Shown here in pieces: positions 12,292-20,862 of a DNA stretch of 64,000 bases. Each line of letters opens with the position of its first letter. Within the stretch, counting starts at the first letter, position 1. Below the pieces are notes generated by a model. It did no database searches. It was not told the origin of the DNA and was given only the letters and a program-made list of their open reading frames with translations. Source of the DNA: Spirochaetia bacterium (GTDB lineage Bacteria > Spirochaetota > Spirochaetia > SZUA-6 > Bin103); contig OZ241863.1 of assembly GCA_965203055.1 (NCBI GenBank), positions 2,400,001 through 2,464,000 on the forward strand. The letters are read 5' to 3'. A program made the position numbers and the translations under genes.

Positions 12292-15709
<3,418 letters not shown>

Positions 15710-15832
15710 CAGCTTCGTAACTCCCGCGTGCGCTCCGCGCAGCCCAATTTGATCGTGACCTTGGACTGCCCGCCTGTCAAGCCAACCGACAGCGTTACAC
15801 CGTTCGATCATGCTATGCTAGGGCCACCACGC

Positions 15833-16828
15833 ATGCCGGGCGACCTGCACCAGCCGCATGACAGTCTGTTTCGCAAGGTGTTCTCCGAGCCGGCCGAAGC
15901 GGCTGGCTTGCTGCGCACCTGCGTGCCCCCATGGCTCGCCGGTACGCTGGACTGGTCCAGCTTGACCCTGATGAACGCCAGCTACGTGGACGACGACCTG
16001 CGGGCCAGCGAGTCTGACCTGCTGTACGCCGTCGAGCAGCGCCCAGGAGCCACGGAGCCGGGAGAGGCGCGGCGTTCGCTCCGGCTCTATCTGCTGTTCG
16101 AGCATCAATCGATGCCGGACCGGTTGATGCGCTTCCGGCTGCTCAAGTACTGCTGCCGCATCTGGGATGATTTCTTGCGCTCCGACGAAGCGAAGGGGAC
16201 GCCGGACTTGCCGCCGATCGTGCCACTGGTGTTCTATCAAGGTAAGTCCCGCTGGCACCATGCGACCCAGTTCAGCGACTTGTTTGCGGAACCGGTCCGG
16301 CGCTGGCCCTGGACGCCGCAGTTCACGCACCTGCTGGTGGACCAGTCGCGGATCGGCGTGGAAGCGGTACCCGGCGAAACCTTGGGCCGGGCCGCGCAGC
16401 TTGCGCTGATGGCGGCGGCGCGCCGCGAAGTGGGGGCGGCGCTGGCGCGGGCGGTGCAGCTCATGGGAGAGTTGGGCCGGGCGGGTCAGAGCGAACGGTT
16501 CCGGCCGGTGGTGTTCTACGTGCTCCACACCCAGGATAAGGAGACGTTGCGGGAGTTCGAAGCGGCGCTGCGGCGGGCAGTACGGGGACCAGGAGGAGAT
16601 TTGATGACGTATGCGGAGGAGCTGATCCAGGAAGGCCGGCAGGAAGGCCGGCAGGAAGGCCGGCAGGAGGGCCGGCAGGAAGGCCGGCAGGAAGGCCAAG
16701 TAGTCACGATCGAGAGTTTTCTGCGCGCCGGCGTCGGCTGGCCAATCATCAAGCAGGCCACCGGCATCGACCAGGAGGAGTTCGAGTTGCTCCGCCGCCG
16801 GAACCACGGGTCAGATCGGGAGTCCTGA
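15833..16828 (+). CDS. Rpn/YhgA-like (Transposase_31) PD-(D/E)XK nuclease
   Basis: HDSLFRKVF, SDLLY, LLFEHQS, MRFRLLKY, LPPIVPLVFYQG, QEGR repeats. Confidence 0.92.
   Translation: MPGDLHQPHDSLFRKVFSEPAEAAGLLRTCVPPWLAGTLDWSSLTLMNASYVDDDLRASESDLLYAVEQRPGATEPGEARRSLRLYLLFEHQSMPDRLMRFRLLKYCCRIWDDFLRSDEAKGTPDLPPIVPLVFYQGKSRWHHATQFSDLFAEPVRRWPWTPQFTHLLVDQSRIGVEAVPGETLGRAAQLALMAAARREVGAALARAVQLMGELGRAGQSERFRPVVFYVLHTQDKETLREFEAALRRAVRGPGGDLMTYAEELIQEGRQEGRQEGRQEGRQEGRQEGQVVTIESFLRAGVGWPIIKQATGIDQEEFELLRRRNHGSDRES
16604..16828 (+). CDS. Putative intragenic small Rpn antitoxin (RpnS-like), 74 aa
   Basis: AGGAGGAG at 16591-16598 before in-frame ATG 16604 (MTYAEELIQEG). Confidence 0.7.
   Translation: MTYAEELIQEGRQEGRQEGRQEGRQEGRQEGQVVTIESFLRAGVGWPIIKQATGIDQEEFELLRRRNHGSDRES
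16628..16697 (+). repeat. 12-bp coding tandem repeat CAGGAAGGCCGG, 5 full units plus a partial
   Basis: Seen directly; encodes (QEGR)n. Confidence 0.95.
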
Positions 16829-16932
16829 TTCAGTTCAGCCACACCCCACTGGTCGTTCAGTAGCGCGACAATCAGGGTGAGAAGCGGCGGGCGGCGTGGC
16901 CGCTTCGCTACCGGGGCGCTATGATTCGGGCC

Positions 16933-18762
16933 ATGCCTGCCACTACCCGCCCGCCCGCTGCCCGACCGCCCGCCGCGCGCGGCGCCATTCGGATCGACAC
17001 GCCGTTGCCGCCGCCGCCGTGGGCCGTCATGCAGCGCGCCTTGCTGCAAGCCCAGGCGCCGGCGCTGGAGGCGTTCTACGCCAAGTACTTCGACGAGCGC
17101 GGCTACCTGCGCTGCGTGCCGCGCTGGGGCGGCGACGACGGCGCCGACGATGCGGCCGAGAACTTCACCGGCTGGACCCTGCTGTACGCGCTCGGCGCCG
17201 ACCAAGTGGTGCTGGAGCGTTACCTGGCGGCGTGGGAAGGGCACCTGCGGCAATACACCGAAGCGCGCACCGTGGAGGTGGAGTTCGCCCGCGACGGCAT
17301 GTACTTCAAGGAGTTCCCGGTGATGTTCGACTGGGGACACAACGGCGAGGGGTTCAACGCCTTCTTCCTGCAGGGGTTGTGCACCCCGTACGACGCCGCC
17401 TTCCAGGCGCGAACGCGGCGCTACGCCGGCTTCTACCTGAACGAGGACCCGATCGCCGGGAACTACGACCCGCACCACCGGGTGATCCGCAGCATGTTCA
17501 ATGGCAGCCGCGGACCGCTGCTGCGCAAGGCCACCGCCCTGGACTGGGCCGGCGACCCGATCGAGATCGAGGGCCGCTTCAAGCCGGGTCACCGGGAGCG
17601 CAGCTACCGGCAGATGCTGGCCCACTTCGCCGAGTACACTGACGTCGTGGGCGATCATCCGCTCAACCTGCAGACCACCACGCTCGCGCTCAACGCCTAC
17701 CTGATCGCCGGCGAGGCCAAGTACCGCGCCTGGATCGTAGAGTACGTGGACGCCTGGCGCGAGCGGACCGCGGCCAACGGCGGCGTCATCCCTACCAACG
17801 TGGGCCTGGACGGGACGCTCGGCGGCGCCTGCGGCGGCCGCTGGTGGGGCGGCACCTACGGCTGGGGCTTCACCATCGACGACTATCTGAACCCGGGCCG
17901 CGGCGGGCGCATCCACCGGCATTCGTTCATCGAGCGGGCGCCGCTGGCGTTCGGCAACGCCCTGCTCGCCACCGGCGATCAGGCCTACGTGGACACTTGG
18001 CGCGGGGTGATCGAAGCGGTGAACGCCAACGCCAAGGTAGTCGCCGGGCAGACCCTCTATCCGCACTGCTACGGCGAGGAGGAGGGCCGACCCGGCTGGT
18101 ACAACTACACCCCGGAGCCGTACGCCAACGGCGCGCTGCCGGTGTGGTTCTGGTCGATGCGGGAGGCGGACAAGAAGCTGCTCGCCGGCCACGAGTGGCT
18201 CCGCTACCTGGACGGCGCCAACCCGGACTACCCCCTGACGGCGCTGCAGCAGGAGTTCGCCGAACTGCGCCGCCGCGGGCAGCGGCTGTGGGCCGACACC
18301 GGCACTCCCGACACGCGCATGTCGGACGACTCGATGGACGCCAACCCGGCGCTTACCACCGCCCTCACCCGCCTGATGCTGGGAGGCTGCGAGCCGCGCC
18401 ACTACGGCTTTCCGCTGCACTGCCGGCTGCGCTACTTCGATCCCGAACGGCGGCGCCCCGGCATCCCGCCGGGCGTGGCGGCCCTGGTGGACAGCATGTC
18501 GGCGACCGAAGTGGCGGTGACGCTGGTCAACCTGGACCAGGTGAACGGGCGCTCGATGGTGATGCAGGCCGGCGCCTACGGCGAACACCGCTTCGGCGAG
18601 GTGCGCGCCGACAACGCGGGCGCCGGCGCGGCGCGGGCGGCCGTCGACCAGCCGTGGGTGACCGTGCGCCTGGAGCCGGGCTGCGGGGCGCGCCTGGTAT
18701 GCGAGCAGCACCGCTACGCGGAGCGGCCCACCTTCACGTTCCCCTGGGACCGCGACGAGTAG
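16933..18762 (+). CDS. Conserved hypothetical protein (~609 aa)
   Basis: Strong codon bias; Trp/Gly/Asp-rich motifs (RWGGDDGADDAAENF, FDWGHNGEG). Function not recognised. Confidence 0.75.
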   Translation: MPATTRPPAARPPAARGAIRIDTPLPPPPWAVMQRALLQAQAPALEAFYAKYFDERGYLRCVPRWGGDDGADDAAENFTGWTLLYALGADQVVLERYLAAWEGHLRQYTEARTVEVEFARDGMYFKEFPVMFDWGHNGEGFNAFFLQGLCTPYDAAFQARTRRYAGFYLNEDPIAGNYDPHHRVIRSMFNGSRGPLLRKATALDWAGDPIEIEGRFKPGHRERSYRQMLAHFAEYTDVVGDHPLNLQTTTLALNAYLIAGEAKYRAWIVEYVDAWRERTAANGGVIPTNVGLDGTLGGACGGRWWGGTYGWGFTIDDYLNPGRGGRIHRHSFIERAPLAFGNALLATGDQAYVDTWRGVIEAVNANAKVVAGQTLYPHCYGEEEGRPGWYNYTPEPYANGALPVWFWSMREADKKLLAGHEWLRYLDGANPDYPLTALQQEFAELRRRGQRLWADTGTPDTRMSDDSMDANPALTTALTRLMLGGCEPRHYGFPLHCRLRYFDPERRRPGIPPGVAALVDSMSATEVAVTLVNLDQVNGRSMVMQAGAYGEHRFGEVRADNAGAGAARAAVDQPWVTVRLEPGCGARLVCEQHRYAERPTFTFPWDRDE

Positions 18763-19003
18763 CCGCGCTGCCGCTCACGGCAGGGTCGTGACGGTAGCTG
18801 AAGTCGATCCGAAAGGTGCGAAACGAATCGATGTAGGCGTGTTGCACTTCGCCGATCTCGCGGCACAGCTCACCCAACGTCAGGCTGCCGGCCGCCGGCC
18901 GAAAGCCAAGGTCCGCATCGGCCAACACCGCCAGAAGCTGCCGCCGCAACTCCTGCGTCGCGCTCAGCACTTCCCACTCCTCCCGCATGAACCCGGTCAT
19001 CAC
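18734..19003 (-). pseudogene. DinB-like protein, C-terminally truncated
   Basis: LADADLGFRP..SLTLGELCREIGEVQHAYIDSF resembles a DinB N-half; only 89 aa and runs into the convergent gene. Confidence 0.6.
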
Positions 19004-19014
19004 CTACTCCCGAA

Positions 19015-19779
19015 TTAACGGCCGCCGCGAATAAACCCGTGCGAATCAATGTTGGTATACTCATTGAACCTATGCAGTAACCCAGGCCAATCGAAAACAT
19101 TGAAGGGACGATGCCGGCGATGCTTTACATCGAAATGAAATCCGACCGGTAGCCCGAAGGTCAGCTTATTGTTCCGCCAAGCCGCCAGCCCGTGGCTGCC
19201 ATGGCGCGCAGTCCTGCTCGTAAATAGTAGTTGATTAGCGTCGCACCATCCCTCGTGCGTCCGATGTACGCTACGGAAACGGGCGATGGCTGACTTAATC
19301 GAGTCAAGACTGTCTCGTGCGGCCTCATGAACATTACGAGCACGATCCCAAATATTACTCACCGAAGATTCGGCCGAGAACGCAGTTTCGGGAAGCAACA
19401 GTGGCGAGGAAATACCAGGCCTGATTATCGCACGCCAGCACTCCTCAAAGGCCAGAATATCGTCAATGGCTACGTCGAAAGCAGGTTGTCCGTACTCTGC
19501 GGATAGGGTACGAGGTAGCCATACCGCTCGGTAGGACCTGGACTTCAACTCCAAGAACCCCGGACGTTGGTCCTCTCTGTCGTGGGATAGAATAAGATGA
19601 ACACCGTCCGCCGGCGCCTGATCCGCTACGTTCATGATGCGAGACCATACGCCCCGTAGATCGGCATATCTGTCTTGGGCGCCCGGGAATACTTCGATTT
19701 TCCACCCTGGTCGTTCGAACTTTGATTTTGCTCGGCGGTATACCGCAATCGGTATCCCGGCGACGACCGCAAAGGGCAT
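19015..19779 (-). CDS. Hypothetical protein (lower-GC cassette, gene 2)
   Basis: 254-aa ORF, atypical codon use, 5 bp downstream of its partner; C-terminal SPLLLP...HG...GFHFDV...NIDSHG. Confidence 0.75.
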   Translation of the reverse strand: MPFAVVAGIPIAVYRRAKSKFERPGWKIEVFPGAQDRYADLRGVWSRIMNVADQAPADGVHLILSHDREDQRPGFLELKSRSYRAVWLPRTLSAEYGQPAFDVAIDDILAFEECWRAIIRPGISSPLLLPETAFSAESSVSNIWDRARNVHEAARDSLDSIKSAIARFRSVHRTHEGWCDANQLLFTSRTARHGSHGLAAWRNNKLTFGLPVGFHFDVKHRRHRPFNVFDWPGLLHRFNEYTNIDSHGFIRGGR

Positions 19780-19784
19780 GTTTA

Positions 19785-20564
19785 CTATTTCTGAAGATCG
19801 TCCAGCATTGCCTCAACGGCCCGAATCGGGACACGGAGTTCCCGAATTTCGTCATCATTCAGGAATGGTGTCAATAGTGCCAGCGTACGATGGGGGGACT
19901 TAGAGACATGCAATCGGCGAAACCACGCGTCGCGAGGAGTCACGTGGTGTTCGCCGGCCCACTGAATGACCTGCTCCTTGATTTTTCCTTCCTGTGCCGA
20001 GACCCACTTGTCCAGCAGTCCGCGGGTTGTAACCTCCCGTCGAAAGTCGGACAACGGGTTTGCCGAAAGCAATGAATCTCGCAACGGCTGTTGAGCTTCG
20101 GGCGGCAGCGTTCCGATGAACTCGTTCCGATAGGAAATCAGACGATCCAGAGTTTGACTGCTTACTTCGATCGACGGACCTTCCGCTCGATGTTCGGGCA
20201 GAAATCTGTCCTTTGCGGGAACATATACGAATGGGACCTTGGAGATTCTCGTAAACGCTTGATATACGTCGCTGCGCAATCCACGGGATCCTGACGACGA
20301 TAGCCCTCCATGACCCGGATCGCGAGCCCCGTCCAGGCCGATAACGACGTCGCTTCCCGGCCTGATTTCCACGTTCACACCGGGAACATCTGCTACAAGC
20401 CGGGAGAAGGATGTGCCTGATTTTGCTACGTACCCAGCCACGTCGAAACCGGCCGAGTAACCGGCTCTAACCATATGTTCTCGCAATTTGGCGCCGGGAA
20501 TCATCACTTGTTCTGCGCCAAGGTCTTGTAATGCTTCTTTGGTGAGTATCTTCCAATCCGTCAT
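19785..20564 (-). CDS. Hypothetical protein (lower-GC cassette, gene 1), possible N-terminal OST-HTH/LOTUS-like domain
   Basis: 259-aa ORF with GAGG upstream; IPGAKLREHM...GFDV..Y...GTSFSRLVADVPGV resembles OST-HTH. Confidence 0.7.
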   Translation of the reverse strand: MTDWKILTKEALQDLGAEQVMIPGAKLREHMVRAGYSAGFDVAGYVAKSGTSFSRLVADVPGVNVEIRPGSDVVIGLDGARDPGHGGLSSSGSRGLRSDVYQAFTRISKVPFVYVPAKDRFLPEHRAEGPSIEVSSQTLDRLISYRNEFIGTLPPEAQQPLRDSLLSANPLSDFRREVTTRGLLDKWVSAQEGKIKEQVIQWAGEHHVTPRDAWFRRLHVSKSPHRTLALLTPFLNDDEIRELRVPIRAVEAMLDDLQK

Positions 20565-20592
20565 CCTGGACCTCGATCGGACACTGAAGATG

Positions 20593-20625
20593 CAATGTGG
20601 GCTGACGAAACGTCAGCCCACATTG
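20593..20625. repeat. Perfect 15-bp inverted repeat
   Basis: CAATGTGGGCTGACG-AAA-CGTCAGCCCACATTG. Confidence 0.95.
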
Positions 20626-20778
20626 TGAAGCGGAAACAGCAACGCTTGCCTGATGAGCTGCTGGGACTTCGATGGACCGCTCGTGCTTAGGCACGGCAAG
20701 GATGCCTAAATGAGGGGGCCGTCCGGACAGCTCGAGGTTCCCCCGCACGAAATTGCCGATTGAAGGGGAATCAAAACG

Positions 20779-20807
20779 ATTATACGCATCGACAGGCAGA
20801 TTGTAAA
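20779..20807 (-). promoter_or_regulatory. Sigma70-type promoter for the two-gene cassette
   Basis: Minus-strand TTTACA-17 bp-TATAAT. Confidence 0.7.
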
Positions 20808-20862
20808 GCAGGTGGATCCGGCCGGCCGAGCAAGCCGGTGGTCTTGTCGATAGCTCGCTTGG

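Follow-up and report, generated by a model that had tools for sequence, protein, structure and literature searches.

The window, a stretch of 64,000 nucleotides from a Spirochaetia bacterium, contains a two-gene cassette preceded by a conserved, apparently structured leader RNA. Its genes, ORF1 and ORF2, are coupled and co-inherited, and the cassette is patchy in distribution, low in GC and located at unrelated sites. On balance we lean towards the view, drawn from sequence, structural models and analogy, that the leader RNA and the two proteins form a three-part RNA-protein toxin-antitoxin (TA) or abortive-infection system under RNA control. The cassette is apparently undescribed in the databases and literature searched: no description was found in that literature, outside which subscription papers mostly lie. 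Two 2026 preprints, on ncRNA mining (10.64898/2026.09.22.753630) and BECR classification (10.64898/2026.08.28.747851), may bear on its novelty.

Architecture, distribution and neighbourhood of the cassette

The two ORFs, whose lengths and tight coupling had been described in the sequence-only reading, lie 5 nt apart (table). Their GC content, which that reading had called lower than that of the flanks, is 54.5%, compared with a genome value of 68.8%; when the genome is cut into 2940 tiles of 1550 bp, 39 are as poor in GC. GC3 is 56%, compared with 92% in the flanking RND gene. On one side the cassette adjoins this efflux gene, classed by eye as RND-type, and on the other a small DinB-like gene. 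A promoter belonging to the cassette itself had also been proposed. By count alone the promoter-like sites of the region are at chance level (1 found, 1.0 expected), yet a site matching at least 9 of 12 positions recurs in 21 of 27 homologous leaders, where 2.9 were expected. Its spacing is almost constant in 19 of the 27, at 218-279 nt ahead of ORF1; some of the start positions behind this count were set by hand.

Features of the cassette and its leader, by window position (protein parts by residue)
Feature	Position	Strand	Basis or remark
Promoter-like site, sigma-70 type, TTTACA-17-TATAAT	20779-20807	(-)	11/12 match; recurs in homologous leaders
Conserved structured non-coding element, ~128 nt	20645-20772	(-)	Alignment, identity, covariation
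RNA helix P1	20772-20765/20743-20736	(-)	Predicted
RNA helix P2	20733-20728/20660-20655	(-)	Predicted
RNA helix P3	20724-20721/20667-20664	(-)	Predicted
RNA helix P4	20720-20712/20682-20674	(-)	Predicted
RNA helix P5	20709-20703/20693-20687	(-)	Predicted
RNA pseudoknot (loop-tail)	20700-20695/20650-20645	(-)	Predicted
Terminator-like hairpin, between RNA element and ORF1	20593-20625	(-)	U-tract weak in window copy
ORF1	19785-20564	(-)	259 aa
ORF1, OST-HTH-like part	residues 1-85		Weak
ORF1, UPF0158-related part	residues 92-208		Followed by a short conserved C-terminal motif
ORF2	19015-19779	(-)	254 aa
ORF2, N-domain	residues 1-120		Flavodoxin-like alpha/beta
ORF2, C-domain			Beta-rich, with H193, K205, H215, D217, N243

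Co-occurrence of the two genes, which the sequence-only reading had put forward as a check, is pronounced, and the pair is found across several phyla. Sixteen GTDB loci were collected, assigned by record title to Spirochaetia, Alpha- and Gammaproteobacteria, Bryobacterales, Terriglobia, Tepidiformaceae and Binatia. In 14 of them an ORF1 homologue lies directly upstream of ORF2: 12 of these pairs are intact, a contig end truncates one, and in one both genes are broken. ORF2 fragments are all that the remaining two loci contain. A metagenome scan that included a distant clade gave 39 loci, five of them fragments; in the other 34, which represent 25 distinct sequences, ORF2 is near-complete and without exception has ORF1 directly upstream. 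Most intergenic distances fall between -4 and 21 nt. When 61 related genomes were searched with the ORF1 profile, eight intact loci were recovered, each followed by an ORF2 homologue, together with a fused ORF (L024) and a remnant left by deletion (L179); all other matches cover the UPF0158 region only. An intact ORF2 without ORF1 was not seen in these sets, and a lone ORF1 was seen once, outside the related genomes (L140).

The cassette is present in 7 of the 61 relatives and in none of 300 other genomes of the phylum. Among 72,556 plasmid records there is a single copy of ORF2, frameshifted and without ORF1, and no copy of the cassette was found in viral contigs. Decayed copies occur at L012, L018, L179 and P0063; the absence of intact ORF2 without ORF1 and this repeated decay fit a toxic ORF2, rather than proving it. 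A housekeeping role was rejected because of the patchy distribution, the low GC and the unrelated sites.

Two congeners have the cassette where the window has it; in another two the DinB-like gene is present and the cassette absent. Among sequencing runs, no RNA run was listed as containing the cassette. In one DNA sequencing run, a contig joins position 18768 to 20857 without the cassette (30 nt on one side), a weak hint of an empty site that we do not count as evidence. In G010 (L071:5846-7867), at the same insertion site, additional low-GC cargo lies between the RND gene and the cassette. By eye it comprises a 496-aa gene for an HTH plus IrrE/RmrA-like peptidase, preceded by a small ORF, and a fragment resembling IstB, which makes the site a possible hot spot for cargo.

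Neighbouring genes, hand-picked from about 200 called genes, were scanned against PADLOC (98) and Pfam (69). In this selection they are mostly housekeeping genes, the majority of copies being situated outside defence islands, and some copies lie near TA, defence or mobile genes. Within four called genes of the cassette are HigB (L005), PIN/Phd (L039), PIN/MazE (L044), BrnT (L041), HipA (L009), Menshen NsnC (L007), an AAA_21 ATPase (L011) and a type IIG RM gene (L037). Serine recombinases flank the cassette on both sides in L032, and in L003 its insertion splits a MoxR-vWA pair. Around an ORF2 fragment only, L014:868-9876 holds a defence-like cluster (HAD-like, PRTase-CE, ORC-CDC6-like, CARF6 and NucS-like), and directly upstream of another cassette (L034:1-4346) four genes of low GC, one HerA-like, one for an AAA ATPase and two unknown, are a possible undescribed defence operon.

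The vicinity of the cassette within the window has features of its own. A putative Rpn/YhgA-like transposase with EGRQ repeats (15728-16828, plus strand; PF04754, E 5.7e-39) lies 2 kb away, and a Gly/Thr-rich repeat protein with a lipoprotein-like N-terminus (14078-15811, minus strand) has a frame that seems degraded toward its C-terminal end. A 613-aa protein without a Pfam match (16921-18762, plus strand) is conserved in congeners. The DinB-like gene (18734-19003, minus strand) looks truncated or frameshifted, since it encodes about 89 aa compared with 167-173 aa in relatives.

The leader RNA

The leader, of about 210 nt, holds a conserved element of about 130 nt (128-nt core); neither this RNA nor the terminator-like hairpin figured in the sequence-only reading, which did propose cloning the genes with and without the leader. 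Starting just past the -10 box, a good alignment is obtained for 13 clade-1 leaders, which come from several phyla. In 11 of 12 relatives the RNA core is more similar to the window copy (66-90% identity) than is the DNA of ORF1 (53-73%), the exception being L013 (50% against 53%). Our clade-1 model, drawn by hand from the window sequence and judged on related sequences, comprises five helices, nested or side by side, together with a loop-tail pseudoknot and the final hairpin. Under this model 86.2% of 608 cells are paired, against 32-50% with slid partners, and two-sided changes occur in 20 of 48 pairs, against 10.9 +/- 2.1 after shuffling (0 of 500 shuffles); a further measure, counting further pair types, was not significant (70 of 500). 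Alignment, identity and covariation together indicate that the leader carries a conserved RNA with covarying helices.

The pseudoknot is predicted on two lines of sequence comparison. In clade 1 it is conserved and 87% paired, but without two-sided change. The clade-2 leaders differ in sequence and follow a similar apparent plan: in 17 of them the loop complements its own tail over 5.1 nt, against 3.7 nt for the tails of others (0 of 5000 permutations), in columns picked by eye and among related sequences. Folding z-scores, which include the terminator hairpin, are -2 or lower in 29 of 31 clade-1 and clade-2 leaders and near zero in all seven leaders of clade 3 and the fusion. Of the 31, 27 have a hairpin ending in a U-rich tail ahead of ORF1, against one of the seven; the hairpin of the window copy was not called by the terminator scan of the window.

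An Rfam search with the leader returned chance-level matches only and no family. Read from the alignments, the leaders contain one nested element, and tandem repeats were not seen in them. No conserved leader-peptide ORF was apparent among the translated frames of the window.

The third clade (L021-L023, L177, L178 and L140) has proteins of about 230 and 300 aa, its ORF2 being linked to the family by HHalign at 98%. Save for the single hairpin already mentioned, its six ORF1 loci and the fusion have neither the leader RNA nor the terminator; therefore, the RNA is not required by every relative. Two genomes of this clade carry two cassettes each. The clade-3 ORF2 has additional conserved Cys and His residues, which might bind metal. 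The fusion (L024:229-1788) is an ORF of 519 aa, with an ORF1-like half bearing a clearer OST-HTH signature and an ORF2-like half (HHalign 94% and 89%), and lacks the ORF1 C-terminus and the ORF2 N-terminus. It may be a natural fusion or, as in L179 and P0063, the product of a deletion.

Predicted functions of the two proteins

No named system had been recognised in the sequence-only reading, and neither window protein has a match in Pfam, PADLOC (2.0) or NCBIfam; a PADLOC scan of 143 ORF2 members gave scattered weak matches only. ORF1, with 20 homologues rising to 44 by profile search, is predicted to be an RNA-binding or regulatory partner. Its clear domain call is UPF0158 (PF03682), which aligns with residues 92-208 (HHalign 96.3%, E 1.7e-9, 100 columns). 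The Pfam model is weakly matched by 16 of 58 ORF1 family members, P0251 attaining the cut-off of 21.1 bits, and UPF0158 loci are retrieved by the ORF1 profile search. The OST-HTH/LOTUS N-terminus proposed earlier survives as a weak match and is the less firm of the two assignments: residues 1-85 align with OST-HTH (PF12872) members at 27.6% (pairwise E 6.5e-4; controls below 0.6%), and in the Pfam scan the domain appears in one of 58 ORF1 members at E 0.052 and in L024 at E 0.034. In relatives the UPF0158 domain differs from ORF1 in being apparently fused, by eye, to a GNAT-like C-terminus (L106-L134; G000:C1:3518726-3518977), a gene that the family search found as a single copy in 39 of the 61 related genomes.

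For ORF2, 70 near homologues were found, and 246 representatives after clustering at 50%, the full-length proteins among the matches listed being mostly about 250-270 aa; the family is basic (median pI 9.3). The AlphaFold model of the whole protein has a pLDDT of 96.6, and that of the C-domain alone 91.6. Best structural matches of the N-domain (Z 7-8.7) are to periplasmic binding, PTS IIB and receiver domains, as befits a generic flavodoxin-like fold. The earlier proposal of a nuclease site in a His-rich C-terminal block remains plausible and can be narrowed. The motifs named, RHGSHG, GFHFDVKH and NIDSHG, are present, and among 143 homologues H193 (142), K/R205 (143), H215 (142), D217 (136) and N243 (141) are near-invariant, whereas H196 (38), H220 (88) and H247 (119) are less conserved. 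The five near-invariant positions are retained in clade 3.

We predict with moderate confidence, from sequence and model, that ORF2 is an RNase toxin, because E3/CdiA-CT-like fold matches and an Ntox37 alignment accompany these near-invariant residues. Out of 48,161 chains the C-domain is closest to CdiA-CT ECL (Z 3.2, rmsd 2.0, 49 aa), with colicin E3 fifth (Z 2.8), and a second structural comparison places colicin E3 first (Z 3.0, rmsd 1.9, 48 aa); scores of this order (Z about 3) are low and tied with those of unrelated beta proteins. Both toxins are given as 16S rRNases in the accessible part of PMC9086364. The E3 range aligned, 25-86, includes D55, H58 and E62, named as its active site in the sections of PMC3482391 available to us, and by eye H193 would correspond to H58 and D217 to E62. 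With Ntox37, ORF2 aligns across W..H..GxHxD (HHalign 60.5%, E 8.4e-5; controls at most 0.5%), against a profile of two members. The Ntox37 motif is E, [KR] and Hx[DH], according to the same portion of PMC3482391, and the [KR] plus Hx[DH] catalytic motif of Ntox37/E3-like RNases is present in the ORF2 family, aligned with the Ntox37 members.

Other comparisons were negative. HHalign of ORF2 with seven colicin E3-family sequences failed (probability 0.05%), and no homologue reached the Pfam cut-off for PF15535 or PF09000 (two of 143 at E 0.035, one of 143 at E 0.006). Foldseek against PDB and viral structures gave no match at E <=0.001, and we base no assignment on its weak rows of TOPRIM-like proteins (gyrase B, RloB-like). 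PDB sequence searches with profiles A1, A2, A3 and A9 yielded nothing significant.

Candidate mechanisms and known systems

Under the RNA-controlled three-part reading, the promoter would make the non-coding RNA in excess, as the hairpin would stop most transcripts, and terminator read-through would supply ORF1 and ORF2. ORF2 would be a metal-independent RNase, acting through H193, K205, H215, D217 and N243 on rRNA, tRNA or mRNA, and would be kept inactive by the pseudoknotted RNA, which ORF1 would hold or stabilise. By analogy with ToxIN, shut-off of host transcription by a phage, or loss of the RNA, would then free ORF2 and halt the infected cell. A more specific version, which we advance tentatively and with some doubt, is that the cassette represents a novel class without reverse transcriptase, in which a single pseudoknotted ncRNA and an OST-HTH/UPF0158 protein make up a sensor-antitoxin ribonucleoprotein that cages a domesticated, ribosome-cutting RNase of the E3/Ntox37 type with an immune role.

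The main competing explanation is a protein-protein TA or defence pair (type II/IV-like) with a leader that is a cis-acting attenuator and an RNA that is no antitoxin; ORF1 would bind the leader, set terminator read-through by autoregulation and by itself neutralise ORF2. We regard it as unlikely. A structured leader with a terminator is a layout that attenuators share, clade 3 retains both genes without the RNA, and ORF1 is acidic to neutral where ORF2 is basic. The conservation of the RNA core beyond that of the coding DNA, and of the pseudoknot across clades, is nevertheless more than a simple operator needs. The single ORF of L024, uniting ORF1-like and ORF2-like parts, can be counted for a protein pair, but loses weight if, with both termini missing, it is a deletion product.

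Two further accounts also have to be weighed against the RNA-controlled three-part system. The same three parts could make up a selfish addiction or stress module without an anti-phage role, whose toxin would be released by loss of the locus or by stress. The lone insertions between housekeeping genes, that in L003 among them, and the frequent decay would suit such a module; we think it quite improbable, given the one broken plasmid copy, the lack of any in viral contigs and the proximity of some copies to defence or TA genes. Least probable, and one that would surprise us, is a ribonucleoprotein enzyme whose RNA serves ORF2 as guide, scaffold or substrate (in RNA processing, sensing or targeting) and not as inhibitor. 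Clade 3 dispenses with the RNA, and a terminator suggests control of stoichiometry, both of which speak against an enzyme of this kind; in its favour are an RNA that is single, lacks repeats, has an intricate fold and keeps its sequence within clades, and two proteins with predicted RNA-facing domains.

If the three-part reading is true, a widespread locus that has the type III layout but is built of unrelated components, one protein more among them, would broaden the class of RNA antitoxins, which to our knowledge come from few families (three type III families, the AbiF type and the retron/DRT ncRNAs). An RNase fold of secreted toxins would have been reused inside the cell, a new ncRNA family missing from Rfam would be defined, and UPF0158, for which we know of no function going by its Pfam name and the literature searched, would gain a first role. 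The RNA-less sister clade provides a natural comparison for the gain or loss of an RNA controller, and the whole locus, 1.8 kb with its leader, is easily testable in E. coli.

Several known systems share parts of this organisation. The ORF2 C-domain resembles Ntox37 (PF15535), colicin E3 and CdiA-CT ECL in being a small beta-rich domain with a [KR] plus HxD motif and an H-G loop, at the level of weak profile and fold similarity. Those domains, as presented in the available parts of PMC3482391 and PMC9086364, make up the tips of polymorphic toxins that are secreted and accompanied by small immunity genes; in contrast, ORF2 looks cytoplasmic and has two insertions and an extra N-terminal alpha/beta domain. 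By eye, H215-x-D217...Y/H241-x-N243 of ORF2 also has a polar spacing similar to R70-x-D72...H97-x-N99 of SRLase1, a BECR-like RNase (10.64898/2026.09.18.752725), a likeness to be taken as a lead only; BECR-like RNases such as SRLase1 differ in being secreted toxins. With retrons, tripartite DRT systems and AbiF with its ncRNA, judged on partial sources, the cassette shares the combination of an ncRNA, one or more proteins and an effector in one small defence locus; it differs in that neither ORF family has a reverse transcriptase or HEPN match.

The type III TA systems (ToxIN, CptIN, TenpIN and AbiQ), described as Abi systems in the accessible text of PMC5086642, have one promoter, an ncRNA with a pseudoknot, a Rho-independent terminator and then an RNase. 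At the sequence level the cassette repeats this order, with a single promoter, an upstream structured ncRNA, a terminator and then genes. However, the gene after its terminator is ORF1 and not a toxin; one element of about 130 nt takes the place of tandem 34-36-nt repeats; and two protein genes are present, where type III systems are bicistronic with a single ToxN, CptN or TenpN toxin, families matched by none of the 143 ORF2 members in Pfam or PADLOC. Since it has no repeats, a predicted toxin of an unrelated family and an extra protein, the cassette lies outside type III, yet it would work much as those systems do.
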